Positions 4,701-47,406 of a DNA stretch of 64,000 bases are shown here, piece after piece (positions within the stretch are counted from its first letter, which is position 1; the number at the start of each line of letters is the position of its first letter). Under the pieces are notes generated by a model, which was not told the DNA's origin, made no database searches, and was given only the letters and a program-made list of their open reading frames with translations. The position numbers were made by a program, and so were the translations under genes. The stretch comes from Blasia pusilla (lineage: Eukaryota). Location: assembly GCA_050084515.1 (NCBI GenBank), contig CM114271.1, forward strand, positions 17,484,001 through 17,548,000, given 5' to 3'.

Positions 4701-4882
4701 ATATGATTCACCACGGAGTACCAAGCGCTTTGCGATATGGTAGAGCTTGCGCGACTACGGCAGACCGGGTCCCATATGCGTCTCGCAACCTCTCCCCCAC
4801 TCTCCGCTGAAATTTGATCATAAATCTGCTTCAACTTGTCGGTCCTCACCCCCTGGTGTTTCCTCCCAACTCTTGGGAGAAA

Positions 4883-5101
4883 TCAAGAGTTGGGAGGAAA
4901 CACCGCACTATAGATAGTGGCCGCCACTATGCCCATAACAGTACTCACCATATCATACATCACATGCCCAGCAAGGGACACATATCTTGGAGACCAATAT
5001 AGTCTCCATCCCTCAATCTCCTCCTCATGGAGAATCCAAAACTCGTGATAGTCATCTATGGGAGGGCCCTCCATGTGTTGAAATATTTTCTTCCATGCCA
5101 T
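4883..5101 (-). pseudogene. gag remnant of the DNMT-Gypsy family
   Basis: MAWKKIFQHMEGPPIDDYHEFWILHEEEIEGWRLYWSPRYVSL aligns by eye with LAWKGLFQHLEGPPMDDYREFRKDHVAEIEAWRQYWSPGYVSI of ORF 29015-29788. Confidence 0.85.
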
Positions 5102-19676: not shown

Positions 19677-21517
19677 AGACCATCCTCCATTCATTGAAGA
19701 ATTTTGATCTCCATGGTGACGTGTGAGTGTAAGAGTCGTATCCCTCCATTTATGCTTCTTTAGCAGTTTTCTACAAGGGGAAATTAAAATGGAGTGTAGA
19801 TCAACAAGTTGAGTATGAGAGTCTATGGGAGGCATTCACGTGCATAAAATGGCGAATCATTGCCACTAATGCATGGAAGGATAGAGGCATAAGCATTCTT
19901 ATATTGGTATGAGGATCTGGATTAAGAGATGTTGAGGAAAGTTTGGGATGCGATGTCGCTTCATAACCACAAAGTCCACATTGAAGATGGTCTTCCAATT
20001 TTCAAAGGAGATTGAGCTCAACATGAGTAAGGATCATATTATGACCACATGTCTTAAGTTCTTGCGTGTACTTCTCCTCGATTCATCTTGAAGAAAACCC
20101 AATCTTGAGCTTTGCAAGTGCAAGACTTATATTGAGTCCCAAAGACTCAACCGCTTGTGTATTTTGTAGGTAGTTGAGAAGCCGCAAAGCGCTAATTGGG
20201 TCAATTCTACCAAGTGCATGCCATCTCCCTCTAAAGCCTCTCCCCAAGCCTCAACCAATCCCCACAAGTTGCTTGCGTATACCGGAGTGCCTTGGTTAAT
20301 TCCTCAAGGTGCGTCCCCTAGCTCAAACTTGAAACACGGCCAAAACATGCATCATAATTAGTTTTTGGTTCAAGGACTTGAGCGGGTAGAGAGGACGAGA
20401 AGAATTTCCCCCCCCATAAGTACTTGTGGGATTCTCTATGGGAACTCCACTTTCCCCATTGTCCCTCTCGGGCCTTTGATTTTCGCCCTCAACTCAAACA
20501 TGGTAAGCGACCTGCGGATCCGAGTTTGACTAGTTAATTATCCATCAAGATGCCTTGGCGGAGGCTTCATGCTGCTTATCCAACTCTCGGCTCCACAAAT
20601 GCATCGTGGATCTTGGACCCGCATTTCATATGTCTCATGGTTAGTGCCCATCTTGACTCCCCATTTGGTGTCTCATGGTTGTCTTTCCGCCCTTTCTGTT
20701 TCATGACAAATCTTATTTCATCTTGCCCATCTTGAATTGATTACTCATATGCTCCTTGCTTCTTGCCCTTGATCGACTTGGCGCTTGGCTCCAAGGTCTC
20801 AAATTGCATTCCTTGCCTCTATCCTAGCTTGCGAGTATCCATATCCCTTTCTCATCTAAGGCTAGTTACAAGACACCTACACATCTCCCCTAGCCTTAGT
20901 CTTGTGGTTGGTTTGGCCACCTTTCTAGTCTTGCGACTAGCTAACCTAGGTTTCAACTTTGGTAGATCGTACCAAGGTCTTTCCTCCTTAGGCCTGCAAT
21001 CATAACTCACTCCTTGTTTCCCTGCTAACGTGGGAGCCATAGACTTAGCTATTTAGGATGCCATGGGATTCCCACTAGAGTGGATGGGGAGGTGGAGTCA
21101 AAATAGACCTACACAGGCACCACCATAGATGTAGTGTGATCATTATGATCGATATGGTTATACGAGGGATAGGTGTTTCAAGCTTTTCCTAGAGGCACGT
21201 CCAAAGGTAGGCAAAGGTCATGGGGGCGGTTGAGTGGGTGGAGATCAAGGAGTGTATGGTCATGGTGATCATGGTAGAGTTCCACCAACAGTCAAAGGAG
21301 ATGGAGGACATGCATTTGTGGCTCATGTAGAGGATGCTACTATGGTGACTCATGACATTGTGAGAATGGCTCAGCCCTAGGGAGGTGGAGTCAAGATAGA
21401 TCTACATGAGAGGATTGATGGGCGTCAGGTCAGGGTTCCCTATAGCAATAATTCACATTTTGTGAGGCACTACACATCCCATCGATGGTGCTTTGATGAG
21501 TTTTTGGTACCCATAGG

Positions 21518-21604
21518 TAGAACATGTACGTTGAATCCTATTACAACTTAGATGGAGCCATAGAACATGTACGTTGACTCCTATTACAACTTAGATGGAG
21601 CCAT
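21518..21604. repeat. 43-bp tandem duplication
   Basis: TAGAACATGTACGTTGAATCCTATTACAACTTAGATGGAGCCA repeated twice with minor differences. Confidence 0.9.
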
Positions 21605-22204
21605 TTCATTAGGGATAGCCATCCTGGTATAACAGGATCCCATTGTTCTTTGCCACATATGGACTTGGCAACGGTAGAAGTTGGACCAAAAATGGTGTTT
21701 CGATTGGTTGCTATGATATGTGAGTGGATACCTAGAGATTACTACTTTTCTTGTGCAAGGTTGCACACGGATAAAGTGCATATCGATGGACATTCCCATA
21801 TCTACAGACTTATCTTCATCCCTAGGACGGAAATGTTCATATGGGCTAAGGTACCTTAGCATGCCCAACCCCACAACGTAGACCTAGGCTTGGCTAACCC
21901 ACAGCTAGTCTAGGACCCCATTCACCATTTCTTGCCATCCGTTTTGTAGCTGCATGGTGGGCCTGCAATGGGCCAATCCGGGCTTAGTGTGGTCCGGTGC
22001 AGGCTTAGTGCGCGCCGTGCATGGGCTTCATGCAGGCTAGGCGAGGGCTCATAGCCCGCACACCCATCCAATCTCTAACTGCCTCAAGCTCCCTTAATCT
22101 TAGACCGCACTCATTCCTACGTCCAAAGCCCACACGGGCCACTAGGGTACACAAAAAAATTGGGCATAGGACCTGTTAGGCATTTTCGTTTCCATGAAAC
22201 CTTG

Positions 22205-23480
22205 CTCATATGGAAGTAGTGTTTGAGGATGTGGTGGAAAACTACTCGGAGTAGGTGCTTGGGACATCCCTCACTCATTCTTCGTAGATTACGGCTACTA
22301 GGTTTGTTGATATGCTAACTAGACACACCAATGAGCAAGACATGATGACACTAGGTATGATGTTATTGGACAACCAAAGCGAGGTGTTCTCCTTGGTTAG
22401 CCCTACAAGTATGTTGTACCAACAATAGTGTGTGCTACTTGATTCGGAAGCATAACCCTTGATGTTAGGGAAGGCAACATTTAGCATTGGAGTTACAAAA
22501 ATATGATATTGAGCCATGTCCCTTCAAGATACATACCTCCATTGGGGGTATGTCACTCACATAGTTCATGACTCGAAAGGAGCTACTTGTCATACTCCAT
22601 CTAGAGCATTCTTTAGATAGTGCGATTGCACGTAGTCATACAATTATGACACCAAACTAATCGTACAATGTTATACCACCTTGATTACATCCTTAATTTT
22701 TGGGAGGAGACGGTTTCTTATCACCCAAGATGGCGATTAGGTGACAATTGGGTAAACATCTACCCATGCTATTTGCAAGGCGTGATGGTGGTGGTAGTCT
22801 AAGAGGTCAAACAGTAACCACGTTGGAAACATTCATATGTAGTTTTAGTATTAAGATGTCATATGCATAGATGCTTTGTTTACAAACAAAGCATCTATGC
22901 ATATGACATCTTGATACGAGATATTCCCATAAAGAGATATGCCATATTGGATATCTCTTCCCATGGTATGAAGACCTCTTCACTATTTTGGGGTATGAGC
23001 GTTGACTTGTTGAGGAGTGTAGATGAGCTCATGAGCCAAGCGTGGAGTTGTGCATCCATTTTGGAGTTAATAGAGTTAAATGATTGTCGAACTCTTCAAG
23101 GGGATACTTAAAACTCTTGGATACCATACATGTTGTGTGCCAATTTTTATATGAGGGTGTGAGAGTGCTTAATCTCTTCAAAGGGATAAGCATAAGGTTA
23201 GTTGAAGTACTGTAGGTTGACATACAAATGCAATTATACCTTTATGTTGAGAGAGATGAAATTGCATGCCGATTCTTATTTTTCTATGTGGATAGTACAA
23301 GTGATCCAAGCTTGGAAATTGCATATTCGAGCTTAAGATGTATGTTAAAGAGATTTGCAAGGGATGCAACCACCATATTGGTGTGTGATGGTTGATTTAG
23401 AGGGTGGCACATGTCGTCTCTGATCCCCTCTATTGATGCAATTCCTATAGGATAGTGGTTATATCCCAGATGTCTTTAAG
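22205..23480 (+). mobile_element. Second decayed copy of the DNMT-Gypsy family (protease and DNMT motif I remnants)
   Basis: VLLDSEA*PLMLGKA at ~22432-22477; EGVRVLNLFKG at ~23153-23186 at the same relative position as in the 27-36 kb element. Confidence 0.7.
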
Positions 23481-26400
23481 GTAGTAGAACATTTAATGTC
23501 GATATGATGTGTGCTACTTGGAGTTAGGGAACCCAATTTCCAATTAGGGGGTTAATTGTGTGGTCTTGGTGTACATGCATGCCGGTACTTTATTATGTGT
23601 GTGGATCTATCCGTATGTTGGGAAGATCGGTGATGTTTGGGGTTTAGATGTGATTAACGATGTGGATTATGTAGCCACGTGTATGTTGTCACGTCTTATT
23701 TATGCAACCTCAAGAAGTTTTCCTTTATCTCTTGAGGTTATCCTCTAATCTCCTTCAAAGGACCAAAGGTGCTCTACCAAAACTTATCAATCTATCCTAT
23801 AAGACGTGACATTGTTTAGGGCTATTGTGATGGAAAGATCTATTTTGGCTCTTCCTAAGTGTATAAAAGGTGGGGAGATGGCTCTCACTGACTATGTTTA
23901 TCATGTTGAGCCTTCACAACACTCATCCTTTTAGGTTTTGGTTGGATCTTGAGTGTTAAAGTATGGATTCCCTTATCACATAGGATTGACATGGCTTGAT
24001 GACTATACGTAGATTTGAGACTGCGTTTGGCCATGTGAGCCATTTTTACTTCAAATTTACATGAGAAAGATAGATAGGGCATGGGGATTTATTTTTTTGG
24101 TAGGTGGGTAGTTGAGTTGCCTGGTTGGAGAGCCCCTTCAAGATATATTGATAGGATTTTGTGTTTGTTTATGCTCAAAAGGCCATACGTAGAAGCGCTC
24201 CCATTTTTCACAAAATTTTGCTAGTGGCGGATGGATATAAGGAAGAAGCAAAGTTTTGTGGAGCATTACTTGAGTATAGCACATAGGGAGAAAATGTTAG
24301 AAATTTGGGAGAAAATGTTAGAAATTTGGGAGTAGTGAAGGATAGACATAAAATTTAGGGCAAGGCTAACCCTTGCTACCAACACAAGGGCTATCAAGTA
24401 AGGCCAATCAAAGATGCAAAAGCACAATCGAAAAAAGAAAGGGTATGAGGATGCAAGGCTATAATAGTGTAGATGAAGGCATAACCTTGCGGAGTTAGTC
24501 GAGAGTGGCTTTAGATAGATGTCTTCAAGTAGGAATGGACGAAAGGGCATGCTTATGGTAGCTGGAGGTTAAGTGCGTCTCCATAGCGGCGTCAACAAAC
24601 ACATGCATACAGTCTCATTAGCAAGCTTGATAGAGTTATTGGAGCACATGGAAGGAAGTGGAGCCATATATGTCGTTAGGCTCCATGAAGTATGTAGTAG
24701 ATAGTGGGCTACATGCATCATTGGAGCATCCGATTTGGTACGTGACCTACCATAGTAGAGGGATCAACCACGTACATGGCCTGCAAGATGGTAGTAGGTT
24801 GATTCGAGGGTAGATCTTGAGTATTGATTGTTGTATGACTCAACTTGATTGTGACCCAATCTTGTGATGTGAGTGGTCATGATTTGTTATGAGATTTTCC
24901 TATGACGTAGGTTGTAAATTGTCTCCCAACTTACTAGTACAGTGGTGAGTTGTGTGTAGATGAGTGATAAGCACCAACAATCCATATTGGAGTGCTAAAG
25001 ATGGTGATGCACATGCTACTATTAACAATGAGTCCAAAATTATAAATGTGAGATTGGACTTGTTGTTTGAGGAGGTTTTTACATCGTCCAATGTAGTTAT
25101 TGGACCGTGTAGAGGAGTGATGGTGCACACGTTCAAGTTATCGATTTGAGTCCTATTCCCATGTTTGTCTCTTCTCATTGAGGGTATTGGGTGGAGCATA
25201 TGATAGATAGGTGTAGTCATGGTGTTGAATGAAGACTCTTTTTCTGTGTAGCATGTGGGTATAGAGCGGTTGCCCAAGTAGGGGTCTTGTGTATGACTCA
25301 ATATTATTATTAGCTTAGGTGAGCTTGTACGGGAGGCTCAGGGTGAGCTCACAGGTTTATCGTCATCAGATTTCTTTAGCATAGGTGAGCTTGTGAGTAG
25401 TGAGGGAGATTGAGGGTGAGTATATGGGCTTGAGCCTGTGAGGAAGGGTTGTAATAAACATTCTTCCAAGGTTTGAAAAAGGGTAGTTTGAGTAGTAGGG
25501 GAGGAGTTATGAGGCATGAAGTGAGGTGTTGAGGGATTTTGAGTGAGGAACCACCTGATCCTTAGTTGGATTTTAACCATTGGATAGCGAGTCTAGTGAC
25601 ATGATCATAGATGGAAATAGTGGCAAGTGGAGAGATATGGATAACGTGAGCCATAAGGGAATTTCTTGAATGTGGTAGGTACCAAAAAAATTGATGATTT
25701 CAACCAAGAATTTGACATGTAATATGATTTCTAAGAAATACAAGCCTTGACGCAATTTAACCCTTTCATGGGATGAAGGGTTTGTTACAACATTTGTAGG
25801 AACTTCCAATGGATGATTTTTGTGAATTATGCTCTTTATATGATGTAGAGATTGATGGTTGGAGGGTGTATTGGGCTCCATATAATTTCTCTATCGGTGG
25901 TTATGAGACTTATGATGGGATACTGAGAGCGACTATACCTACACCAAGATTGAGGACCAGATGGAGATGATGTCATATATGGTAGGGGATGCCTAAGACC
26001 TCTAATACTAGTAGGCCACCTAGTTTCAACCCAATAATGGAGTTCTTTTGAGAGTTGGGGAGGAACTACGAAGGCATGTTGATCAATAAGTTGAAGTTTC
26101 CACAAGAATTTTAAGAGAGATCATGTGAGAGTCCATTGGAGGCATTCATGTACATATGAAGGCTAATCATTGCTACTCATTGAATGATAGATGCACATGA
26201 AGTTCAATCTTGGTATGGGATTTTGGACCGAGACAACATTGCATCTCAAACAATGGAGTTCTTTTGGGATGTAATTTTGTTGTACAACATCACATAGCCC
26301 ATATTGAAAGTGGTCTTCAAGTCTTCCAAGAGGATTGGGCTCAACATGAATGAGAAGCATGTAATGACCACAAGATTTCCACTAGAGTCAACATATTTTG

Positions 26401-27141
26401 ATAGCCCCATAGGTGCCCCAACATGCATTCGTACTACGAAAGAGATTTGGTGTGTCGAGAGAGCACAATGGGTATCGTGAGCCCATGAGGCAACAACCCA
26501 TACAAACATATTTTGACTAATAAGGGTTGGGTTTGTTTTTGGACATTTGGTGGATCCCACAGTCATAGGGACTAGAGACAACATGGGCGCCTCACATTGC
26601 TCAAGAGCCAATTTTGATGGTACCATTGTAGTTATAGTATGATCATTGTTATAAGTATGGTCATATGAGAGATACGTTTATTTTCATAAGATACACCCAT
26701 ATGGAGGCCAAGGTCCTAAGAGTGGTAGAGTTGGTGGAGACAGAGGAGGTTTCAGCGATGGTGGTAGAGCTCCACCACCTATTAGAGGGGATGGAAGATG
26801 TGCACTCGATGTATTGCTCCTCACTTGGATCAATCAATTGGAGCACATGATTATTGCCATGACAATGATGTAGCCAATGCTCGGATCCGAGCATTGGATG
26901 TATCATTGTCACGTAGCCGAGGCCATCCACTTCACCTTTAGCCTCCACAACATATCAAGATACAGGGGTTTATTTCACTAATATAGGATCTATATGTAGT
27001 GTGACATAGGTTTGTATTTCCACTTTGATGACTCAAGACAATGTGAGAGTAATCAAACCATGGGGAGGTGGAATGGAATTAGACCCACATTAGTGGAATG
27101 ACAATCGCAAGCGATAGGCTAGGATGCACTTCATACACCAT

Positions 27142-27507
27142 TGTCATGACCATACGGATTATGTCGTAGAGTATGGTGTGCTGGTAGAGGCCATTCCTTA
27201 TGTAGGACCGTAGTGGCTTGGTAGAGATGTGGTTCCATACATAGGGTTGGGGGTTACTTACTTGGGGGTGACTTTCCTAGTAGGGCCCGCTCTTAGGTTG
27301 GAGGATATAAGGTGGCTTGCCCTCAAAGAACAGTCAGTTCTTTGAGTTGAGCCTGTTGCGTTGGGAGTTAGCCTTGGTAGTGAGTAGAGCTCTTGGCTAT
27401 GGTGTTTCCCGCAAGCTTCGACCTAGATTCTCCCATCGTGGAGTGGGTTTGGCTCGATTGTATGTGATTGTAAACGTGTTTTATGACAATAGTTCTTTCA
27501 CGGATTT
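27142..27507 (+). repeat. Terminal repeat A1 (copy of A2 at 35687-36053)
   Basis: Near-identical to A2 by eye (about 8 differing sites); contains TATAA at 27306-27310. Confidence 0.95.
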
Positions 27508-27508
27508 C

Positions 27509-27521
27509 ACTCAAAGAACTG
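27509..27521 (+). promoter_or_regulatory. Putative self-priming primer-binding site
   Basis: ACTCAAAGAACTG is the exact reverse complement of CAGTTCTTTGAGT (27335-27347), which starts 29 nt after the TATAA; no TGG-type tRNA PBS follows the repeat. Confidence 0.7.
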
Positions 27522-29014
27522 GAGTAGATCGATGGTAGCTTCGATTGTAGATCAGTAGGATCTGGTTAGGGCTGATTGTGTACTCAGCCGTGGATGTTCG
27601 TGGCTTGTGGCCTATGTTGGAGGTATGAATCAGGTGCGTGGTTGGTTGGGAAAGAAGCGCCTTGCTGAGAGCTTTCCAATGCGCTGTAGATCGCCGGATT
27701 TCGTCAAGGGAGTTGGAAGTTATCAAGCATTGAAGATTCTGGTCGTGTTCGACAGTTTTCTGATGTGGAGAGCTTGGAGTGCGGAAGCTGTGTTGAAGTT
27801 CATCCAGATCGGGTGAGAGGTTCCTGTTGCTACTCGTATTGTGATCTCCTGTGAATCTATCTGCTCGAGTGCGTGGAGCGTTGCGGATTTCTGCGTGCAT
27901 GAAACTTGGCGGAAGCGCTGTCGGATTTGCGGTTGTAGAGGTGTATGGACAGCAAGTTTGTCTGATTTTTAGCCCGGAGTACGGAGCTCGGTTGTAGCTG
28001 AGTTTTTGTGGGGAGATAGCTATGGTGGTCAATTGAATTCTGATCGAAACAGATTTGATTTCGGTCACGTATTTGTGAAGTAATTTTGATCGAAATTTCG
28101 CGGACTAGCTCAAGGTCCGGCTATGGTGGGCAAATGGATCGGAGGGGCTGGTTGGTTGGTGACTCGTTCATTGTTGGAGACGCCTATCCCGTTGGGGGCG
28201 CCCTGGTTGGACTTCTCTCCATAGCGAAGCATGGCGAAGCGTGGCGAACGGGGCGATAGGGGCATGTCTCGGCGTTTCGAGGCTTCGAGGCAACTCGTGG
28301 TAGCTCGGGGCGAGTGGGCGTGAGAGGCGGAGTAAGGAGCAAGGAGCAAGCAAGCAAGCTTGCTTGCTTGGGCGTGAGGCAATTTTTGCAGGATTTGGGA
28401 TTTGAGTTTTGCATAACTGGTCACACATCTTTGGGCTATTCTGCCTGGAGGACGCTTAACTGCTGAGTTCTTAACTATGCCAGTGTACAGACTGTTGTAG
28501 CTCATTTGGTGCTGTTCGGAGATGTGTTGGGTGCTTTATGCATCTCAGGTTTTTGGTTGATGTACCTCTAGCGCATAGTACGGTGTAGCCTCTCCATACA
28601 AGTGATATTTTCAGGTGCTGCGAGTTCGACTAGCACGTCATCGACCCGCGGCGGAGTAGCTATTGCGTTAGAATTGTGTGGTGGGTTTTGTGGATTCAGG
28701 GGGCACCACGTTTGGTGGATTGTGTTACCTTGATTTCCATTTGCGGTTGGAGGGTTGTCGTTGGACTTCCTGTGTCTGGATCCCCTCCATCGTGCTTCTT
28801 GCTTGCGCGCCCATTGTTAGGGTTGACGCTGATTTCCAGAGTAGTGTAACTCCTGTGTGCTACCGGTAGTGAGGCTGGAGGGATGACGAGTAGATTGTGG
28901 GAGACTTCTTGTGGTGATGACAAGTTAGGTTGCCTACACCCATAGCTAGTAGAGCTAGAATAGTATAGCGACATCGACGTCACTTGGTAATTTGGTGGTG
29001 GTGCGGCATCGGCG

Positions 29015-29788
29015 TTGGTCATCACGGAGCTGTCGGGTGGTCTGGTTGGGGACCGTGGTGCGGACAGTGGTGGTTTCACACGGAGTGGATTTACGTATCG
29101 GCTACCTTTTCCACTTCCGACGGTTGATGAAGAGGAGGACCAGGGTGTTCCAAACACCGAGTCTTCTACGTTGTTATCGAGTGTTGCAGCTCCATTGATT
29201 TGGGACATGGACGGTGGATATGGGGCCATGAAGGGCCCACGACGATACTCGGGTGCAGTGGGTACCATTGAGTTGGAGGACTTCATGCAGGAGTTTGATA
29301 CGTGGTGTGATATGCAGATGTTGCGGAACGCCACGTTGTTTACATCCTTCTTGGCTTGGAAGGGGTTGTTTCAGCACTTGGAAGGACCACCCATGGATGA
29401 TTACCGTGAGTTTAGGAAGGACCATGTTGCTGAGATTGAGGCATGGAGACAATATTGGTCTCCAGGCTATGTGTCTATCACCCATGGTGGTATTGGTAGT
29501 AGTGCTCCTACTATGCCAGCCAGCCCGACGTTGAGTGGTACGAGTACGAGCCGGAGTGGGGGTACCAATGGAGGTACTAGTGGGGGTACTAGTGGAGGTG
29601 GTAGAGGTGGTAGGGGTGGTAGAGGTGGACCAGTGGTTGGAGAGCCTACGGTGGCTACCCCTACCACTACGACAGAGTCAGCTATGGTTGCCAGGATTGA
29701 GCAGTTGGAGCAGAAGTTGGCTACTATGGTCGGTATCCAAGATAGATCAGGTTCGGGAGCAGGGCTTCCACCTCTTATGGAGGGATGA
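29015..29788 (+). CDS. gag-like ORF of the DNMT-Gypsy element (start uncertain)
   Basis: 257-aa ORF with RYSGAVGTIELEDFMQEFDTWCD...FQHLEGPPMDDYREF, upstream of the protease; a homolog lies at 4883-5101. Confidence 0.7.
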   Translation: MVITELSGGLVGDRGADSGGFTRSGFTYRLPFPLPTVDEEEDQGVPNTESSTLLSSVAAPLIWDMDGGYGAMKGPRRYSGAVGTIELEDFMQEFDTWCDMQMLRNATLFTSFLAWKGLFQHLEGPPMDDYREFRKDHVAEIEAWRQYWSPGYVSITHGGIGSSAPTMPASPTLSGTSTSRSGGTNGGTSGGTSGGGRGGRGGRGGPVVGEPTVATPTTTTESAMVARIEQLEQKLATMVGIQDRSGSGAGLPPLMEG

Positions 29789-30289
29789 TCTCTCTTATAT
29801 GGCGAGTGCAAAGACAAAGGTTGAGGCATCGCCTACGAAGATTAGAGGAGCCACTCGGCGTCGAGCCACTCGGCGTCGAGCCACGTGGTGCTCTGTGGGA
29901 GTTGGACCCATAGAGGGGTGAGGCAGCTAGGCTTCCCGGTCATTCTTGTTATCGAGGTGCTTAGGACTCCATCCATGGTTCCTACGCAACCTATTGAGCC
30001 GAGTGGGGATCGAGGCATCTACATCGCGTGTAGTAGACACGGATGCAAAGATCAATGCAAGATTGCGGATGGCAACTTCAGTGTTGGGATCCCCATTGTT
30101 TTCGACCACGGAGCGATGGCTTTAGGAGTTGACTTAGCTCTGTATTTCGATTAGCGACCACGTTGTGTGAACGTGGGGGTATTCTTCGCTACACGTGTTG
30201 AGGTGGATGAGGGTGTTGCGGTGGAGTGACCCTCTATGTCGGGAGTAGCATTGAGTACCGGTGCTACTTGGCGGCGAGCGGCGAAGATG

Positions 30290-30740
30290 GATGCATTACC
30301 GGCCCGGCCAGCCATTGATCGTGAGAGGCTTACACTGGTGTATGTATGTTGGACAACCGGAGTGGGATCTTCCGATTGGTGAGTCCTACAAGACAGTGTA
30401 TAGACCAGATAGAGTCTTGTTAGACTCGGTGCCCAACCTTTGATGTTGGGAAAGGCATATTGGTTTGGGTATTCGGAGGTCGAGCTTGAGCCTTGCCCCA
30501 TTCAGATTCAAACATCACTTGGAGGAGCCAATGATAGGTCTCAATTCATGACACGGGAGAAGTTTTTGCATGCAGTTGAGACCGGATGATGCGAATGATA
30601 GCTCCCGGTTGGGAGTATCTGCATGTAGTCACATCGGCCGAGTCGTATGATGTACTAGTTGGAGGAGCGATTGTACCCGATGGGTTTTCAGATGGATTCT
30701 TCGGATCGAGACAGCGTCTTATAGACCTGGTTGGCAGTCC
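30290..30740 (+). pseudogene. Retroviral-type aspartic protease (frameshifted)
   Basis: RVLLDS(G)AQPLMLGKA at ~30411-30457 and YDVLVGGA at ~30645-30670. Confidence 0.8.
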
Positions 30741-31124
30741 GGGGATGGACGTATGAGCCAAGTTCTGTGAGATTTATTTCGGGGCTCGACAAGGAGGGTC
30801 TTCCCAACAAGTGTTAGCATATGTGGCTGGTTTTAGTAGAGTAGTCACTTGGCCAGGAGACTTTTTGGAGGGTAATGTTTCTACTATGGATTCTCTGCGC
30901 ATGAGGAGGAAGAGGAGGTCCCTATTTTTGCAGCAGTGGCATCCTCATCGTTGGATGTGCCACTTTGGAGTTCAGCGGTGCACTACGGCAGAGGCGATCG
31001 CCTAGTGCAAGAGGCTTGGTGTGAGGTGTTATACCTCACGAGGAAGAGGAGGCCCCACGGCGGACTCCTACTTCTGGCCTGATTGGGTTATCCCCTTTGG
31101 ATACTACACCCATTGTATGGGTAT

Positions 31125-32085
31125 CCGCGAGGGCATTTGTGTGTTAGATCTCTTTGGTGGGATTAGGTTTGGTTTGGTTTGGCCGCAATGTTGCAGGCCG
31201 GTATTCTGTCTTGGAGATACGTGTATGTGGAGCGAGATGAGACGGCCTGAGAGAGTCTCATCCCGACATATTGGTCGATTGATGCGGGTATCCTGAGTTG
31301 TTGCCGCCATCAGCTATTCGTGGGTACCGGCGTGCTTTTACCATCACACATTGCATTGTTGGGGGCGCAGGACCTTGAGAGAATTGGTCTTGTGGATTTG
31401 GTGATTCTTTGGATGGCCATGTCGGGTCATACACGTCTTTGGTCGGGATGAGGGATTACATGACCCTAGGTCTCGATTGTTTTGGGAGATGTTACGGGTG
31501 TTACAACATCTTCAGGTTCATCAGGCACGTGCTCTAGCTTACATTCTGGAGAATGTTCCATTGTTGGGTGACACTCGGACTCGGATGATGGCGAGTGTTC
31601 ATGAGGTCTTGGTCTTGGATTGGACCAGCGGTGTTGTTGGATGCTGTGCGAGTTGGCTCAGCGTGCACATCGTCCACGCTTGTGGTGGACAAACTTGTTG
31701 CCTAGGATGGTTCTACGTCGAGCATATGATGCAGTGCAGCGGGATCCTCGCCTTACAGTGGATAGTATCTTGGATACTGGGCGACTTTCCCAAGTGGTGA
31801 GGGTTATTGATCGGTCACCCATGGGTGGTGAACCGTGTGGGCGACCTAGGATGGCACTACCCACATTTGTGAGTTTTCCTCGTCACATGCCTACAGGGAA
31901 GGTGGTCTGGGGCTTGTATGGGATTCTCATGTGCGACAGTTGGTAGAGCCTAACGCTGATGAGAGAGAGCGTGCGATGGGATTTGCTACTGGTGTGATAG
32001 TGGTTGCTTCTATTTCTGAGGCTTCACGACGTCATGTGTTGGGTCAAGGCCATGGACCTGAATTGTTTGACTTGGATTTTGAGTC
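31125..32085 (+). pseudogene. C5 cytosine DNA methyltransferase domain, DNMT3-like, within pol (frameshifted)
   Basis: Ordered motifs: I VLDLFGGI (31141-31164), IV GWPC (31411-31422), VI ILENVP (~31543-31560), VIII AHRPRLWWTNL (~31665-31697), IX ERERAMGF (~31960-31984), X RRHVLGQ-AMD (~32027-32057). Confidence 0.9.
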
Positions 32086-32449
32086 TTGGTATGGCCGAGC
32101 GTCGACTTCGGACTATGTCTGTGGGTCTTCCACCCCTTGTAATGAGCTCGATGGCTAGGGACGGTAGAGGCATCGGTGGGGCGAGGAGAGTAGTATTTTG
32201 CATCCTTGGAGTAGATGGGATGTAATGGTGGGCATGTGGAGTTGGTTGCTCATCTTTGGTGGAGGAGTTATTTGCTCAGATGATGGTGTAGCTAAGGGTG
32301 TATCATCTTGTGAGGGGGTTGCGTAGCAGCCAATGGCATCATCCTCTCCCTCTAGTATGCCAGTGGAGGAGACTTGGGAGCCATTACTTGGGCCCAAGCT
32401 TATGGGAGGTGAGAAACGACGCTGACCGCGGTTCCTACGTGCTTATAGG

Positions 32450-33400
32450 AGTTGTTTTGCCTTTAGCATGAAGGAGTTGGGTTCTCTGGTTGGACCCGGT
32501 ATACGGATTGATTTGGCTAGTGATACGCCAATCTTCCATCGTGCCTATCGATATAGTGATATGGAGAGGACTTGATTGAGTAGGACGTTGGACCTTTTGG
32601 AGGCTGGATTAGTGGAGTTGTCGCATGGAGAGTATGCATCGCCCACTTTGTCATGCCTGCTAAAAAAGGATATGTATGGCAACTACACGGATAGGCGGAT
32701 GTGTGGAGATTACCGTCCTATCAATCGGCAAACCAAGGCCGATAGGTATGCCATGCCTACACTGAGGAGATCTTTGATGTGGTGGGACAGCAAAGATTTT
32801 CAGTTTTTGGATCTTGAGCGGCAGATACCATCAATTGCCGATTCGGGAGAGTGACAAGGCCAAGACAACATTTTGGGGTGTCAACTCTCATGGCAAGGAT
32901 TGTTTGTACAGTGGAAATTCTTACCCTTTGGGTTGAAGAATGCACTGCCGAGTTTCAAAGAGTGATGGACAGGATCCTAGCAGGTTGGATTTTGTTCGGT
33001 GTTACATTGATGATATCTTGGTGTTGAGAACACGGTGGAGGAGCATCGATACATTTGCAGATGGTGTTTGAGCGGTTGAAAGCTCATGGTCTACGTTGCA
33101 TCCAGGAAAGTGTAAGTTCTTCCATGAGGATGTTGAGTACTTGGGTCATGTGATCTATCCGGTGGTTTGGGAGTTCAACAAGCAAAGGTGGAGGCTATTG
33201 CACTTATTCGCGTCCGATAGATGTGAGTAGAGTTCGAGCATTCATGGGATTGGCGAACTACTATCGGAGGTATGTGAAGGGATTTAGTGCTATGGCAAAG
33301 CCTTTGAACCAATTGCTGAAATCAGATCAAGAGTGGCATCGGGAGATGATCGGGAGAGAGCTTTTGTGGAGCTTAAGGCCAGTTGGTGGCGGCGCCTATC
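32450..33400 (+). pseudogene. Ty3/Gypsy reverse transcriptase (frameshifted)
   Basis: RRMCGDYRPINRQTKADRYAMP, LPFGLKNA, YIDD (33003-33014), VEYLGHVI, VRAFMGLANYYRRYVKGFSAMAKPL. Confidence 0.95.
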
Positions 33401-33419
33401 TTGAGGAGACCTATCGAGG

Positions 33420-33790
33420 GCGCCCATTTTAGTTACACACCGATTGGAGTAGGTTGGGACTTGGAGCGGTGTTGACACAACATGATGATGAGCACATGGA
33501 GTTTGTGGTGGCCTATGCAAGTCGTTCGAATAATGCAATGGAGTCGCGCTATAGTTCATATGAGGGAGAGTGCTTGGCGAGTGTGGGTGTGGCACACTTT
33601 AGGTGTTACTTGTTTGGCACCACAGTTTACCCTTGTTATTCTTGATCACCGGCCGCTCAAGTGGTTGATGGAGTCGGACAAGCTTACAGGAAGCTTGCAC
33701 GGTGGGCTCTTATCCCTCTGAGTATGACTTCCAGGTGGTACATAGACTGGAGTTGCCAACCTTGATCTTTGATGGGTTGAGTAGGAACCC
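33420..33790 (+). pseudogene. Ty3/Gypsy RNase H
   Basis: LHTDWSRLGLGAVLTQ...VVAYASRSNNAMESRYSSYEGECLA...DHRPLKWLM...DGLSR. Confidence 0.9.
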
Positions 33791-34149
33791 ATGTACTAGC
33801 CAAGAGGATACAAGCGGGGCTAGATGGCATGGCGAGGTTGATGAGAAGATGGTGCCAGGTTGGCATGCATCCGCCTTTTATGTTGGTTAGGTGGACTCTA
33901 GTATGGAGGACCACATGATATCTTACTCTAGTCGGAGGGTAGATGGCCACCTTGAGATCCTAAGGTTGGAGATGGTGGTGCGGATCAGCGTGATATTCAT
34001 GATGATGCGTTGGTGTTGGAGTTCCCTTGACCAAGAGGGTGCCAGGCATAGTGAGTGCCAAGGAGTGAGACCGTGTTCTTCAACGTGCTAAGAGGTATCG
34101 ATTGGAGGGAACACATATTCTCGCGTGTGGGAGGATGGTAGAGTACAGT

Positions 34150-35240
34150 AGTGCCACATTTGGCTCAGAGAGAGCGCATTGTGCGACATGCCCATGAGGA
34201 GTTGGGACATTTTGGGGTAAAGCGTCGTATAGCTTACTCCTTGGCCAATATTGGTGGCGTGGCATGCATACTCAGTGCAGTGATTGGTGTCACGTTGTAT
34301 GGTTTGTGACCGGGTGAGGGCATCATTTAATGCCCCTACACCACAATTACACCCCTTGCCTATTATGGGGTTGGGTTACCGTTGGAGTGTGGACTTTATG
34401 GATATTACCGTTGGTATGCGACATCATCGATATGTGTTGGTGATGGTGGAGCACTTCTCCAAGTGGATTGAGTTGGTGGCATTACCGGACAAGGCAAGTG
34501 AGGAACGGCGTATGCGTTTGGATAGAGTGCTTAGTCATTTTGGTGCACCGGTGAAGTCTTGACCGACCGGTCTGAGTTTCAAGGTGAGTTTCAGGTCTTG
34601 TGTGACAAGGCGTTGATTGATCATCGGACCACGTCTCGAGATCATCCGAGGCGGATGGTTTGGCTGGCGTGTGGTTGACGGTGAAGAGGGCATTGCGCAA
34701 GTATGGCCTCTGAAGGGCATCTTGGAGACTATGATATTCGATTACCATGGTTAGCCATGGGGTATAGGTTCGATCGCCAAGCATCCTTGGCTTCCTTCTC
34801 ACCTTATTTTACATTATCGGCCGAGATCCGGACTTGCCAAAGACAATTGTCGGGAGTCTAGTGAGGTGGTGAACCTTGATGACCCAGAGATGTGGATGAG
34901 GGTGTGTTCTCAGCGGGCGGAGCTCTTAGGAGAGTTATGCCAACAACCTTTGAGAATCTTGCCATTGCTCAACACAGGGGATACGTTGTGGTATGCAACC
35001 ATTCGGGGTGGAGGTTATCGACCATCGATTCAGAGGTTCCATGTGGGGACTATGTCTATTTGCAGCAGATTGCCCGACAACGTTGGATGTGACGGCAGCC
35101 GCACTATTTTCTGAGTCGTGAGGTGTTAGCTTCCGGAGTTCTCATGTTGGAGGGTCGTGATGGAGTTGTTTGGAAGGACCATGTGCGTAATTGTGCGTCA
35201 TGTCATCTTCCAAATGTGGATGGTATCTTGTTGACCCAAG
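34150..35240 (+). pseudogene. DDE integrase (HHCC zinc finger + rve core), frameshifted
   Basis: HAHEELGHFGVKR...CMVC, LHPLPIMGLGYRWSVDF, YVLVMVEHFSKWIELVAL, VLSHFGAP...LTD...EF, VKRALRK. Confidence 0.9.
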
Positions 35241-35268
35241 CTTAGCCATGATACGTGCTAGCTTGAGG

Positions 35269-35408
35269 TGCATGTTGTGTGGGTCTGCTGTAACGCGGCC
35301 CGTATGTTGGTGTGTGATCGGTGTTCTAGGGGTTGGCACATGATGTGTTTGACTCCACGTTTGGATGTTGTTCCTCTTTGGAAGGTGGGTTTGTCCTCGA
35401 TGTACTTA
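35269..35408 (+). pseudogene. C-terminal PHD finger of pol
   Basis: CMLCG...MLVCDRCSRGWHMMCLTPRLDVVP...GRWVCPRCT* gives the C4-H-C3 spacing across two frameshifts. Confidence 0.85.
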
Positions 35409-35570
35409 GGAGAGGTAGATGACTTGATCTTTGCATGATATGGATTACGGATGTGCGACTAACGATGGGGCAACCTAGCACCCGGCCTTCGATTCGGGCA
35501 CCCAAGAAGGTGTATAGCATGTAGTAGATGTATAGGGCTACCAGGAGTTAGAGGACCTAACCGCTTGATT

Positions 35571-35580
35571 AGGGGGCGAG
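35571..35580 (+). promoter_or_regulatory. Polypurine tract
   Basis: AGGGGGCGAG abutting the start of repeat B1. Confidence 0.65.
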
Positions 35581-36161
35581 TTGTGGTACACTTGCGTTTG
35601 TGGATACTCTCGTCTATGTTATGTATGTATGTGCGTATGGTATGTCGGCGATGTATGTTGTATGACGATGTGGATTCGACGACATTTGTCATGACCATAC
35701 GGATTATGTCGTAGAGTATGGTGTCTTTGGTAGAGGCCATTCCTTATGTAGGACCGTAGTGGCTTGGTAGAGATGTGGTTCCATATATAGGGTTGGGGGT
35801 TACTCACTTGGGGGTGACTTTCCTAGTAGGGCCCGCTCTTAGGTTGGAGGATATAAGGTGGATTGCCCTCAAAGAACAATCAGTTCTTTGAGTTGAGCTG
35901 CTATGCGTTGGGAGTTAGCCTTGGTAGTGAGTAGAGCTCTTGGCTATGGTGTTTCCATAAGCTTCGACCTAGATTCTCCCATCGTGGAGTGGGTTTGGCT
36001 CGATTGTATGTGATTGTAAACGTGTTTTATGACAATAGGTCTTTCACGGATTTAAGTTGTGGTACACTTGCGTTTGTGGATACTCTCATCTATGTTATGT
36101 ATGTAGGTGCGTATGGTATGTCAACGATGTATGTTGTATGACGATGTGGATTCGCACGACA
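35579..36161 (+). repeat. 3' composite repeat B1-(TT)-A2-(A)-B2
   Basis: B1 35579-35684 matches B2 36055-36161; A2 35687-36053 matches A1; the B1/A2 junction reads GACA-TT-TGTC. Confidence 0.95.
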
Positions 36162-36900
36162 CCATGGATGGTACCTAGACAGTTGGTTGTACATACTAAT
36201 GTTATGGATGCATCAATATCACAAGGAGTTGAAGAGAAAAATCCCATATCGGATTAGGTGGAGCCAAAATATATGGTGGAAAACTAAAATTTATTAAGCT
36301 CCATTTGTTTCCACCATGGACTTGGTGATGGTGGGAGTTGGGCTAGTTGAGGTATTTCAATTGGCTGGCACATTGTGTAAGCATGGATCGAGAGGTTACT
36401 ACCTCTTTGTATAGAGGTGGTTCACGAGGAGGTGGTGGACTAGCTTGCCCTTAGAGCATGTACTTGGGATGTTGCCTATTGGCTTGTGGCAAATTGTAAC
36501 TGCTAGGTTGATGGTAGATATGCCAAGTAGACTCACAATAGAATGAGCCAAGGTGAGATGAGGCTAGGTGTAGTGTTCTTGGAGAACTAGAGTGGGATGC
36601 TTTTCTTTATTTTTTTTGGGTTTTGTATACCCTAAGTATGGCATCTTACTTCATTCGGGAGCGTAACCCTTTATGTTAGGGAAGGCAGGAGTTTGGAGGT
36701 GGGGTTATGAAATTGAGAAATTGAGCCATGCCTCTTCCAAAGAAAGACCTACATAGGATGTGTTTCATCCACACAATTCATGAATCAAGAAGGGTTAGTT
36801 GTTCGAGTCCAACGAGAGTATGCACTACCAAGGATTGAGGCGTTGATATGGCTCCATTACAAATTTATTTTTTCCAAGAGCGATTACTTCACAAGTCCAT
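36162..36900 (+). mobile_element. Older decayed relative into which the 27-36 kb element inserted (continues left of 27141)
   Basis: Protease remnant ILLHSGA*PFMLGKA at ~36643-36688; the rejoined flanks resemble the decayed sequence near 21380-21500. Confidence 0.6.
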
Positions 36901-43911: not shown

Positions 43912-45110
43912 ATGGGAATTCAGGAGCTGCCTGAGAGAGGGCATCCTGAATTGAGGGCCGGACTTCCGCCCCACCCTCACAAATTTGGCTCGCGGCAGAT
44001 GAGAGCTCTTTCTGCACTGTGCGATACGTTCGTCCCTTCTCTTCCACTGGAAGCGTCTGGTCTTCCTCTCGACGTCAAATATGGCGAGGAGATTCGAGCC
44101 AAGAGCAGCTCTGACGATATCGCCGCCTTTTACCGTTTGTCGGCTTCTGATCTGGGGGTACCACTCGGGGTATATTCTTGCTTTCAGCCCTCACAAAGTT
44201 GTCAAATTTCTTCAGGTTGTCGACATCTGCAGTCCTCCTGGCACTGCAACATATGTGTGTACTGTTTCAGGCTCTTTTTGATCTTTTAGAGGGGGACGAG
44301 CGATTTTTCTCCACACTCCTGCAATCGAGCGAACGTCGCTCTCGTCTTACGCCCGTCCTCGAGATTACTTGTGATGTAAACTACGCAGCCGAGTAGAACA
44401 AGTAGTTGTGCAAGCGCTTCCCTGCAAAGAGCGTCCCCTATATCTCGTCCTCATCTCTACCAAGTGGGTCGTTGCTCTAGCTGAATCGAGGACAGGTTAT
44501 CCACACTTTTCCCACCGCGAACTGAGTACCATGTTTGGACTGGCATGTTCCTTGTCCTGTGATCTCTCGTCGCTTTTAGCTCGCATATCGGAGGAAGAAT
44601 CTGCGGACGTCTCTCGTTACTTGGTGACTTGTATCCGCGGGGAAGGAGCTCTCTTGTCTGTACATGAACCGAATCGGTCGGTAAGTTGGACGGGTCAGTC
44701 TCTCTTTAGCAGAATGCTGTCGTGAAATATGCGCGAGTTGGAGGGATAGAACGCGATGATGAGAGTTGGAGTGCTCTACTACGCCTTGGAACGCTGTCTG
44801 AGAGGGAAGACGTTCTTTGGGTGGGAAGAAACACAACGTAAAGTTGTGTAAGATACAGAGGACTATGAATTGTCAGGCCATCCTCCAAGAACTTCATACC
44901 GAATCTCCTGTGCAGAAGTTGACGTTGTATGGGAACGCTGTCTGAGAGAGGTGACTTTCTTGGATGGGAAAGGTTGGGAAGAAACACAAAGTAGACTTGT
45001 AAGATCTGAAGGAACCGTGCATTACCTGATCATCCCCCGAGTATCCTGTCTAGAAGTTGGCAGCGAATGATGGGATTTTGTATCATTTTCTGTGCATCGC
45101 TACTCCTGAT

Positions 45111-45147
<37 letters not shown>

Positions 45148-47406
45148 GAGTCGCCGAGCTCACGAATTCTCACATGTTGGTTTCATCATCGGTGCAGGTA
45201 GCGGGGCTCTTTTTCCTGCGAATTAAAGTTGCCGAACTGGCTTTGCTGAAATGGGTCTTCTGGTTGCTCTCCACTCGTCTGGGCACCTTCCTCTTGAGTG
45301 GAACTCGAAGTATCGCGTCCCAGTTTCCTTACCTACAGAGCTTTCCCGACCTACCGCAAAGTCGGCGTGAGCAGATCGTGACGGGCTGGAGTAGTAGCCC
45401 CTTGTCTAACCTCCAGAAACTCTCCAAGTTGGTCAGAGGCTACACCATGTTCGTCTACTATTCCACGGTACACTCCTCGATTGCCCACGATTCAAGCCTA
45501 TTCCAGTTCGCAAGTTTTTGGGTTCACTTCCGAGTTTCAGACTTGAGATTGCAGAGGCAAATGCCGGAAGTTCTCACGCGTGTCAACTGGATATTTGTTA
45601 TTGAGTCGTTTTGTATGTCCTTTAGGTGGACGCGGCAGGCTGGAATCCAGCTTGGAATGCGATTGGTTACAGTGGACCCCGACTTGAGTACGCGAAAAGC
45701 GACGTGTTGACGCCGAGGCCATTGGAGGGAAAAGTTCTTGACGTAGAATCTGTGGGTGACGAGGAGCTCCGCTCTTTTCTAGCAGGCGGGGATTTACCAT
45801 CCTGGACGACTTGTCCCATCTACGCCGCTTGTCCAGGCAAAGCGAGGCTGGAAAGAAGATCATTGCCGTGAGTTGTGATGCCGTGGTGGTTGGGTCGGGA
45901 TCAGGCGGAGGAGTGGTTGCCGGGGTCCTCGCAGAAGCCGGCAAGAAAGTTTTGATCGTCGAGAAAGGGCAGTATTTTGCCAGGGATGACCTCACTCTGC
46001 TAGAAGGGCCCTCACTTGCCGGGATGTATCTAGGAGGAGGTGTTCTGGCGACGGAGAGTGGGAACGTCGCGATTCTTGCTGGATCGACTGTTGGAGGCGG
46101 GTCAGCTGTGAATTGGTCGGCATCCTTCCGAACTCCCGACCACGTCCGCCGAGAATGGGCCGAGGATTTCGGGCTCTCGATGTTCGCTGGCAGTCGATAT
46201 AGAGAAGCCATGGATGTTGTCTGCTCGAAGCTCGGTGTGCACACCGTCTGTGAGCAGGAAAGTTTCCAGAATGCGGTTCTCAGAAAAGGCTGCGAGAAAA
46301 TGGGGTATGGCATGGAAGATATTCCGAGAAATGTAACGGGTCAGCATTCCTGCGGATTTTGCGGCTTCGGATGCCGAAAAGGAGCGAAGAAAGCCACCTC
46401 TGAGACTTGGTTGGTGGATGCTGTGAATTCCGGATCTCGGATTTTGGCTAAGTGTGAAGTTCGTGGGGTCCTACACCGCAGAAATTCCAAGCGTGGCTCA
46501 GAGAAGGAACGCGAGGCCGTGGGTGTAGTGGCTTCCGTAGGCAAGAACACACTATTATACATCCAGGCCCGTGCTACTGTGATCTCAGCCGGATCGCTCT
46601 GCACCCCACCACTTCTGTTGCAAAGTGGTCTACGAAATCCGAACATCGGGAGGAACCTGCACTTGCACCCGGTGCTCATGGTGTGGGGTTACTTCCCCGA
46701 GGGCCAAGGAGCCAAGGGAGTTTGTTATGACGGGCCGATCATGAGCGCAGTGTCCAAACAGTTCGCCAATTGGCAATCACCTTCGGCTTCTTCTGCATAC
46801 GGCAGTCTCATCGAAGTTCCCATTCTGCACCCTGGCAGCTTCGCCGCAGTGTGTCCATGGATCTCGGGTGCCGATCACAAGGAGCGCATGAGGAAATACT
46901 CCCGTACAGTGCACTTCCTCATCCTACACAGAGATCGGGGGCAGGGAGGAGTCGTGAAAATCAAAGGTAAATCTTCGGAGATCACGTACAGCGTCGACCC
47001 TCTAGATGTGGAGTCCATGAAGGACTCCTCCGAAGGGGCTTTGAGAGCTCTGGTGGCGGCGGGAGCCGTGGAAATTGGCACGCAACACCTTACTGGCGAG
47101 ACATTCCAGAGTTTGAACTGCAAGCCCGAGGAATTGGAGGATTATCTAAAGAGAGTTCGATCACAAGGTGTAAGGAAACTGGAAGTTCCTATGGCCTCGG
47201 CCCACCAAATGGGATCTTGCCGCATGGGCGCTAATCCCAACACGTCTGTGGTGGATGGCGGCGGAGAGACGTGGGAAGTGGAGCGATTGTTTCTGGCTGA
47301 TGCCAGTGTTTTCCCCACGGCCTCGGGCGTAAATCCCATGATCACGGTGCAGTCCGTAGCCTTCTGCATCGCTCAATCTGTGCTGATCAAACTGGAAAAA
47401 GAATAG
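43912..47406 (+). CDS. FAO: Long-chain fatty alcohol oxidase (GMC oxidoreductase, FAO family); exons 43912-44169, 45198-45467, 45626-47406; one apparent 1-nt deletion near 45780
   Basis: QMRALSALCDTFVPS (exon 1), LSTRLGTFLL...PYLQSF (exon 2), NPAWNAIGY, FAD motif CDAVVVGSGSGGGV, AGSTVGGGSAVNW, SAHQMGSCRMG, DASVFPTASGVNPMIT; two phase-0 GT-AG introns. Confidence 0.93.
45113..45142. repeat. (CT)n microsatellite in FAO intron 1
   Basis: Direct reading. Confidence 0.9.

Follow-up and report, generated by a model that had tools for sequence, protein, structure and literature searches.

We describe here a retrotransposon that carries a cytosine methyltransferase domain, located in a 64,000-nt stretch of the genome of Blasia pusilla (contig CM114271.1, positions 17,484,001-17,548,000, forward strand; this whole stretch is called the window, and all coordinates refer to it). 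Three-frame translation, stop-to-stop open reading frames (ORFs) and direct repeats delimit on the plus strand an element of 9.0 kb (27142-36161), within which the segment at ~29.2-35.4 kb is a fragmented retrotransposon coding region. Its parts follow each other in the order repeat A, leader, gag, protease, DNA methyltransferase (DNMT), reverse transcriptase (RT), RNase H, integrase, PHD finger and, at the 3' end, the repeats B, A and B.

The element is bounded by a 4-bp target-site duplication, CCAT, found at 27138-27141 and again at 36162-36165. It opens with the terminal repeat A1 (27142-27507), which starts with TGTCATGACC, a start conserved in the Sphagnum-type loci described below, and is 96% identical to A2 (35687-36053) over 369 columns with 3 gaps. 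At the other end, B1 (35579-35684) is placed directly upstream of A2 and is 95% identical to its direct repeat B2 (36055-36161), which ends in CGCACGACA and is followed by the second CCAT. The internal region between A1 and B1 (27508-35578) begins with a long leader (27508-29206), alignable to Sphagnum-type elements in short stretches only, that gave no match to B; no B repeat was found adjoining A1. Neither a tRNA primer binding site nor a polypurine tract was recognised in a by-eye look at the sequence after A1.

The coding region starts with a gag remnant (29207-29790) whose N-terminal part is intact. It is followed by a pre-protease region, an aspartic protease (~30325-30753, located with a local hidden Markov model, HMM) and a linker, which together span 29929-31118 and share 215 of 357 residues with the Marchantia polymorpha gene model P0017 in a frameshift-tolerant alignment. 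The DNMT (31119-32105) comes next and then an RT that has kept its YIDD motif, together with RNase H (32522-33924; tblastn, and 332 of 452 residues identical to the model P0006 in the same kind of alignment). The core of a DDE integrase (rve, 34284-34816) was recognised by tblastn to residues 1941-2117 of a metagenomic polyprotein (P0178) and with a local integrase HMM (E 1e-16), its PF00665 match (E 2.1e-5, 25.2 bits) remaining under the Pfam cut-off of 32.6. The C terminus of the integrase bears a PHD finger of 58 residues (35262-35435; PF00628, E 2.3e-5, 24.7 bits, cut-off 24).

The methyltransferase domain of the window copy

All six motifs of C5 cytosine methyltransferases were found at 31147-32063 on the plus strand, in canonical order and spread over three reading frames. 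Specifically, DLFGGI (31147-31164), GWPC (31411-31422) and ENV (31549-31557) are read in frame 0, RPRLWWTNL (31671-31697) in frame 2, ERERAMGF (31961-31984) and RRHVLGQ (32027-32047) in frame 1, and AMDLN (32049-32063) in frame 2. The original prediction had listed motifs I, IV, VI, VIII, IX and X in non-permuted order, and all of them are indeed there; the string RRHVLGQAMD that it gave for motif X spans a frame change. Ten ORF pieces were scanned against Pfam and only two of them gave a match, the motif IV-VI piece (31405-31800; PF00145, E 2.2e-5, 24.5 bits, cut-off 22) and the integrase piece; the eight others gave none, and the three other DNMT pieces had no Pfam match individually. A chance origin of the motifs is excluded because the 113-aa piece at 31605-31946 retrieves 39 proteins, with E down to 1e-26 and 55-76% identity, many of which carry PF00145. 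Along the whole domain, 248 of 323 residues (76.8%) are identical to the family member P0008 when the frame changes are followed. The protease lies upstream and the RT downstream on the same strand, so that the placement of the methyltransferase as an integral part of pol between these two enzymes was correct.

What the window copy cannot do, contrary to what had been proposed, is to encode a methyltransferase of its own. Frameshift-tolerant alignment counted 12 frame changes and no in-frame stop in the DNMT; the corresponding figures are 15 and 3 for the pre-protease, protease and linker segment, and 18 and 3 for RT-RNase H. This adds up to 45 frame changes vs 6 stops, the breakage consisting almost wholly of 1-nt indels. 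The first 445 nt of gag (29207-29651) have 0 frame changes and 0 stops. Further along gag, the capsid-like core and the CCHC knuckle have been deleted (~750 nt): the alignment to P0011 (another M. polymorpha model) and P0017 skips residues ~148-304 and beyond, and the Sphagnum-type elements carry ~760 nt extra between window positions 29513 and 29592. Because of the frame changes across DNMT, protease and RT and the deletion of the gag core, this copy is dead, internally deleted and unable to make any pol protein. The catalytic Cys, described before as retained, is present (GWPC), but the domain around it is interrupted by 12 frame changes. Breakage made up almost only of indels could go back to a defective master copy that spread by amplification in trans, or to errors of an unpolished assembly, a possibility that is weighed below.

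Domain order, repeat layout and relatives of the element

The order of domains read in pieces in the window is found in a single ORF in P0178, a protein of 2188 aa in which zf-CCHC, Asp_protease, DNA_methylase, RVT_1, RT_RNaseH, Integrase_H2C2 and rve follow one another; its metagenome contig has 6,816 nt, which leaves no space for introns. Twelve of the 39 proteins matched by the 31605-31946 piece carry organism names, namely M. polymorpha (5), Calypogeia fissa (5) and Sphagnum (2). PF00145 was found in 8 of 9 relatives scanned, one of which (P0006) also has RVT_1 and RNase H. In P0011 and P0017 gag, a DSG protease, the DNMT and the start of the RT are in a single model, and with P0006 these M. 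polymorpha models show gag-protease-DNMT-RT. A search with a 28-sequence profile (8000 candidates scored) gave 38 long proteins, including 11 M. polymorpha gene models and 1 protein of Sphagnum fallax, and close relatives are encoded at 73 metagenome loci. These 73 loci are called Sphagnum-type here, as their identity to named Sphagnum proteins reaches 92% and they fall into the same 90% clusters. At a larger scale, a ten-domain profile run against 1.84 billion cluster representatives matched 4161 at E<=1e-3, of which 1020 also pass E<=1e-10 and 286 pass E<=1e-30; polyproteins of 1.2-3.4 thousand residues are numerous among the matches. A broad protein-cluster survey returned only generic C5-methylase clusters, two of them viral-labelled and one streptophyte. 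Short-read contigs of three organisms cover the DNMT region and its flanks, and the family is very abundant in one of the three (185,795 pieces matched, 53,583 of them >=99% alike).

Since the same order recurs in P0178, in bryophyte gene models from three genera and in other genomic and window copies, the methyltransferase belongs to the pol of this family as a fixed and ancient component and is not a captured fragment. All four complete genomic elements (the window copy and the loci L014, L054 and L064) have the protease, DNMT, RT, integrase and PHD finger in this order, and in three further decayed copies of the window motif I of the DNMT comes right after the protease. It had been suggested that copies lacking the domain, or having it out of frame with protease and RT, would speak for a one-off capture; this was checked, and P0178 carries the DNMT in frame with both. 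DNMT-bearing retrotransposons had also been thought unusual for land plants, but they are not exceptional in bryophytes, with at least 11 M. polymorpha models, Sphagnum, Calypogeia and the 73 loci. Some of the Marchantia models, P0017 (Mp_8g17980), P0329 (Mp_4g09160), P0337 (Mp_6g11220) and P0006 (Mp_2g26090), are pol fragments of this family of DNMT retrotransposons, some of them going under the name of DNA (cytosine-5)-methyltransferase or of reverse transcriptase in UniRef. Comparative surveys could mistake such fragments (e.g., Mp8g17980, a 'DNA (cytosine-5)-methyltransferase' in UniRef) for DNMT3 genes of the host.

The arrangement of the terminal repeats is shared as well. Among 25 longer loci examined, L014, L054 and L064 have the complete A...B-A-B pattern, with spacings nearly as in the window; three more (L005, L020 and L046) have it in part, as far as the contig permits, and the other 19 have neither the complete nor the partial pattern. 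The terminal words TGTCATGACCATA (at the start) and TTCGCACGACA (at the end) are common to the window and the moss-type copies, the outer ends being TGTCATG...CGACA (TG...CA), with TA in place of the 5' TG in L014. Two identical long terminal repeats (LTRs) flanking an internal region are not what is observed, the 5' end being without B in 4 of 4 complete copies. In these same four copies a 4-bp duplication (CCAT, TCTC, AAGG and CATA) flanks the whole A...B-A-B unit; hence this unit, a DIRS-like repeat layout, is what the DDE integrase inserts. The hallmark of DIRS elements, a tyrosine recombinase, was looked for in 8 long polyproteins: no Phage_integrase match appeared, while rve and Integrase_H2C2 were present. 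The assignment to Gypsy-type elements holds for the enzymes, since the order protease-RT-RNase H-integrase, with a DDE integrase and the DNMT inserted between protease and RT, is that of Ty3/Gypsy, as are the TG...CA termini and the short target-site duplication; it does not hold for the repeats, which are A...B-A-B and not canonical Gypsy.

The PHD finger is found in the same place, after the integrase, in L014 (9920-10213), L054 (9722-10069) and L064 (14378-14725). It occurs too in a second branch of the family, in which the DNMT has another position, between RNase H and integrase. Sorted with local HMMs, 48 of 266 family proteins fit the order protease-DNMT-RT-integrase (with or without PHD) and 87 fit RT-RNase H-DNMT-integrase-PHD; 128 consist of the DNMT alone and 3 are of other kinds. 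The second order was confirmed by Pfam for six long proteins; one is labelled 'pol [Scenedesmus sp. PABB004]', and its PHD finger is among those mentioned. Proteins with this second architecture include P0167, P0183, P0187, P0188, P0194 and P0255. A DNMT tree was restricted to the 39 rows with both a flanking domain and a DNMT envelope of 270-420 aa, to the exclusion of all others; in it a single branch (SH-aLRT 96, one change) parts the two architectures.

The domain itself is DNMT3-like and not circularly permuted, judging by profile and fold ranking, the tree just mentioned being one within the family. When P0017 alone was compared to the sequences of the PDB, DNMT3A came first (E 2.3e-6). 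A ten-sequence profile gave DNMT3A at 2.6e-12, next DNMT3B and 3C, then plant DRM at 6.9e-7, covering only the half that is permuted in DRM, with DNMT2, HhaI and HaeIII near 1e-3 and no DNMT1 at E<=1 among the 53 sequences listed. The structure of P0020 predicted by AlphaFold (AF2) from 28 sequences has a mean predicted local distance difference test score (pLDDT) of 82.6, and >90 over most of residues 1-328. Foldseek found with this model DNMT3A, 3B and 3C in all 36 rows among the matches listed through rank 50 (best E 5e-20; template modelling score to the target 0.77-0.81). By predicted fold and by sequence, then, DNMT3A/B/C are the closest solved proteins, as the original prediction had supposed when it preferred DNMT3 to the permuted DRM2 of plants. 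The likeness to the catalytic domains of these animal enzymes extends to motif order and to a similar wording of motifs VIII, IX and X; the differences are that identity is ~20-23%, that there is no PWWP or ADD, and that the domain is set in a retrotransposon polyprotein. In a set of 28 diverse domains, whose identity to the first is 29-85%, the Cys of PCQ, the Glu of ENV and one Arg of motif VIII never vary.

All this leads us to read 27142-36161 as a dead, internally deleted retrotransposon of the type gag-protease-DNMT3-like-RT-RNase H-integrase-PHD, with A...B-A-B repeats, TG...CA ends and a 4-bp duplication, a reading to which we give a probability of roughly 0.8. If the frame changes were indels of an unpolished long-read assembly in a repeat, the copy would be much less broken and perhaps active. 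The 45 frame changes, almost only 1-nt indels, vs 6 stops are what such errors would produce, and the Sphagnum-type copies are instead broken mostly by single-frame stops. Nevertheless, the indels are unevenly spread (RT-RNase H has 18 in 1.4 kb, whereas 445 nt of gag have none), their contexts are not long homopolymers, and a host ORF of 548 aa in the same window is uninterrupted. Besides, 53,583 of the 185,795 short-contig pieces match the window at >=99%, none of 12 indel sites inspected had a majority against the window (there are 220 further sites beyond those 12), and the ~750-nt deletion in gag is not explicable in this way. The uneven spread, the intact ORF, the near-identical short-read contigs and the non-homopolymer contexts favour real indels, and we regard assembly error as improbable. 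A different doubt concerns the DNMT, which might be a fragment of a host DNMT3, or an unrelated insertion, within one single element. Only the prior that accessory domains are rare in land-plant Gypsy elements speaks for this, and there is hardly any chance of it being right, given that the order is repeated in a 2188-aa ORF, in the gene models of three genera, in 3 complete genomic copies and in 3 window copies, and that in the DNMT tree the two architectures fall cleanly apart, with one change.

Published elements and the possible role of the enzyme

The element kind has already been published. KnitGypsy-Dnmt3, from the alga Klebsormidium nitens, has a non-permuted Dnmt3-type domain in Pol and the domain composition of Gypsy elements (de Mendoza et al., 2018; PMC5890265; Nat Commun 9:1341). 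The family described here shares with it the Dnmt3-type domain in the Pol of a Gypsy-domain element and a streptophyte host. The strongest link between them is the repeat layout, because the legend of Figure 4c of that work gives the same arrangement, 'A-coding-B-A-B' (PMC5890265). They differ in that our host is a land plant, with relatives of the element in liverworts and Sphagnum, and in the PHD finger, the term 'PHD' having 0 occurrences in the main text of PMC5890265. Klebsormidium proteins were not found among the 39 matches of the 31605-31946 piece, nor among the 38 of the profile search, in which 8000 candidates were scored.

SymbioDIRS-Dnmt3, from Symbiodinium, also has a Dnmt3-type domain in Pol, A-coding-B-A-B repeats and two domain orders according to the text of PMC5890265; it has a tyrosine recombinase, unlike the DDE integrase (rve) and 4-bp duplications seen here, and its host lineage is unrelated.

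Chromoviruses are Ty3/Gypsy elements with a chromodomain at the C terminus of the integrase. The present family resembles them in having a histone-reading module at this very place, but it is a PHD finger and not a chromodomain, and there is a DNA methyltransferase in addition. Chromoviruses are mentioned in the introduction of a recent preprint on the EpiLTRs of Cymbomonas and Euglena, LTR retrotransposons with a cytosine methyltransferase and a chromatin reader (bioRxiv 10.64898/2026.05.21.726589). The DNMT of EpiLTRs, unlike ours, is described there as sister to DNMT4; it occupies the 3' end of pol and is accompanied by an adenine methylase and a chromodomain, and the authors themselves consider their element distinct from streptophyte Gypsy-DNMT3.

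In the literature consulted, DNMT retrotransposons of streptophytes were found only in PMC5890265 and in one sentence each of PMC12344493 and of the EpiLTR preprint. The available text of these sources does not name bryophytes as hosts, and their supplementary trees or tables may already contain sequences of Marchantia or Sphagnum. What is new here are the land-plant members, the PHD finger, the A...B-A-B unit inserted by an integrase, the two architectures and the possible transfer between hosts. The streptophyte case was before one alga with few copies, and it now comprises Marchantia, Calypogeia, Sphagnum and the genome of the window itself, where the family is very abundant. With this, genetically tractable hosts are gained (Marchantia polymorpha is transformable) and three testable features are added: the PHD finger of the integrase, the integrase-inserted repeat layout and the two positions of the DNMT.

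Cytosine methylation is the main weapon of the host against transposons, and a transposon with a de novo methyltransferase is therefore a puzzle. In intact members the DNMT is in frame with the rest of Gag-Pol, after the protease and before the RT, with the catalytic residues kept; it would be translated within Gag-Pol and hence be carried into the particle together with the RT. Once packaged, it might methylate the nascent cDNA of the element or its fresh insertion, and the PHD finger, reading histone H3 tails, could steer or tether the integration complex to particular histone states. A scheme of release, packaging and cDNA methylation for DNMT-bearing elements is already in print (de Mendoza et al., 2018; PMC5890265), and the same work reports CG methylation by the Symbiodinium DIRS enzymes in yeast. 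That the enzyme acts on the element's own new cDNA or fresh insertion is a tentative proposal, to which we would give somewhat less than even odds.

Several observations weigh against it, or against an active family altogether. The sole relative of this kind to have been assayed, the enzyme of KnitGypsy-Dnmt3, gave no detectable methylation in yeast, a test that its authors call inconclusive (PMC5890265), and kinship with that element is argued from the shared architecture and the arrangement of the repeats rather than from a phylogeny. Constraint on the DNMT is only moderate and weaker than on the RT: in Sphagnum-type copies the median NG86 ratio of nonsynonymous to synonymous substitution rates (dN/dS; stop codons omitted, values inflated by decay after insertion) is 0.59 for the DNMT (32 loci, 488 pairs), 0.35 for RT-RNase H (18 loci, 148 pairs) and 0.77 for protease-linker (26 loci, 320 pairs). 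The DNMT is intact in only 2 of the 53 Sphagnum-type loci that cover >=300 of its 330 residues (L005 and L015), five more having a single stop, and no ORF across the DNMT exceeds 449 aa in 36 loci. The M. polymorpha sequences come from gene models, which may be spliced over defects. With decay in most of the bryophyte copies seen, the family may have died out in some hosts.

The same negative assay in yeast would suit a DNMT kept for another purpose, either as a tether to chromatin or DNA that guides the pre-integration complex together with the PHD finger, or as an RNA cytosine methyltransferase working on the RNA of the element. The PHD finger does indicate that the family invests in chromatin reading, the constraint on the DNMT is weaker than that on the RT, and enzymes of the DNMT2 type, which have the same fold, methylate RNA and gave weak matches in the PDB profile search. 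The three invariant catalytic residues would be needless for a mere tether, however, and the nearest solved proteins, far ahead of DNMT2, are the DNA enzymes DNMT3A/B/C; we consider a role of this sort quite unlikely. Also unlikely, if a little less so, is a role in which the substrate of the enzyme would be host chromatin, either across the genome or, once integration is over, at the insertion site and in its surroundings, and not cDNA in the particle; the benefit would then be self-limitation or the camouflage of the new copy. Effects at the insertion site and a self-limiting role have been discussed by de Mendoza et al. (PMC5890265), and a PHD finger would suggest action on nucleosomal DNA. 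Against this, the position in Gag-Pol next to the RT would rather favour packaging together with the cDNA, although no result presented here separates the two.

A wider picture can also be drawn, which we hold to be doubtful. A clade of retrotransposons with an integrase-PHD module in the green lineage would have long carried a DNMT3 'writer' in two positions of pol, and the branch with the DNMT between protease and RT would have moved horizontally among liverworts and mosses. Active members would choose their site by the PHD finger and deliver cDNA that is already methylated, and in liverworts like Marchantia the only canonical DNMT3-type domains would be those borne by transposons. The available text of a paper on methylation in Marchantia lists five methyltransferases, none of them DNMT3.

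Possible transfer between hosts and other features of the window

A single uninterrupted alignment of ~6.8 kb (window 29592-36161) links the window element to each of L014, L054 and L064, with a DNA identity of 76.7-77.3%; the host assignments on both sides, Sphagnum-type for these loci and liverwort-like for the window, are indirect. The A and B repeats of the same loci are 73-80% identical to those of the window. When its frames are followed, the window DNMT is 71-73% identical to Marchantia sequences, 73% to Sphagnum and 73% to Calypogeia, a star-like pattern. Both the alignable non-coding DNA and this star-like pattern misfit vertical descent since the moss-liverwort split, given the age of that split, and so transfer is a live hypothesis; the comparison suggests that the element has passed horizontally among bryophytes.

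The older copies of the window are found on both strands. A more diverged copy with the same architecture occupies 328-5098 on the minus strand, with gag at 5098-4817, protease at 2656-2120, DNMT at 1331-599 and a scrap of RNase H at 414-328 (tblastn with P0017, P0006 and P0023). A decayed plus-strand copy at 19860-23446 consists of gag pieces, a protease (22294-22781), the motif I region of the DNMT (23093-23290) and a PHD-region match (23375-23446). The third, also on the plus strand, is split by the main element, with gag at 25728-26393 and protease at 36298-36693, matched by tblastn and roughly colinear on both sides; the main element thus appears to have been inserted into an older copy of its own family, as a nested insertion. 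No A- or B-type repeats were found around these other decayed copies.

The sense strand is G+T-rich at 24000-36000 and in the L014, L054 and L064 elements (GC skew +0.25 to +0.27, AT skew -0.11 to -0.17). C makes up 17-18% of the sense strand in the main-element region and in the moss-type copies, and the skew is absent from the older minus-strand copy. Copy-specific hypermutation was rejected as its source, because the window differs from other copies by ordinary transitions in both directions and because the Sphagnum-type copies have an equal skew.

The uninterrupted ORF of 548 aa mentioned above (45760-47406) belongs to a long-chain-alcohol oxidase gene at 45054-47406 on the plus strand, with GMC oxidoreductase N and C domains. 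Its best matches are proteins of ~780 aa from Riccia and Marchantia (61-64%), then Calypogeia (56%), with no moss proteins among the 120 matches listed, and by comparison with these proteins it is probably the last large exon of the gene. The matches point to a bryophyte host, most likely a liverwort, distinct from the species that they come from. A weak match to a PIF/Harbinger-type DDE transposase, below the cut-off, was seen at 12037-12501 (plus strand), and a Copia-type element with RVT_2 and copia gag matches is located at 54629-58431 on the minus strand.

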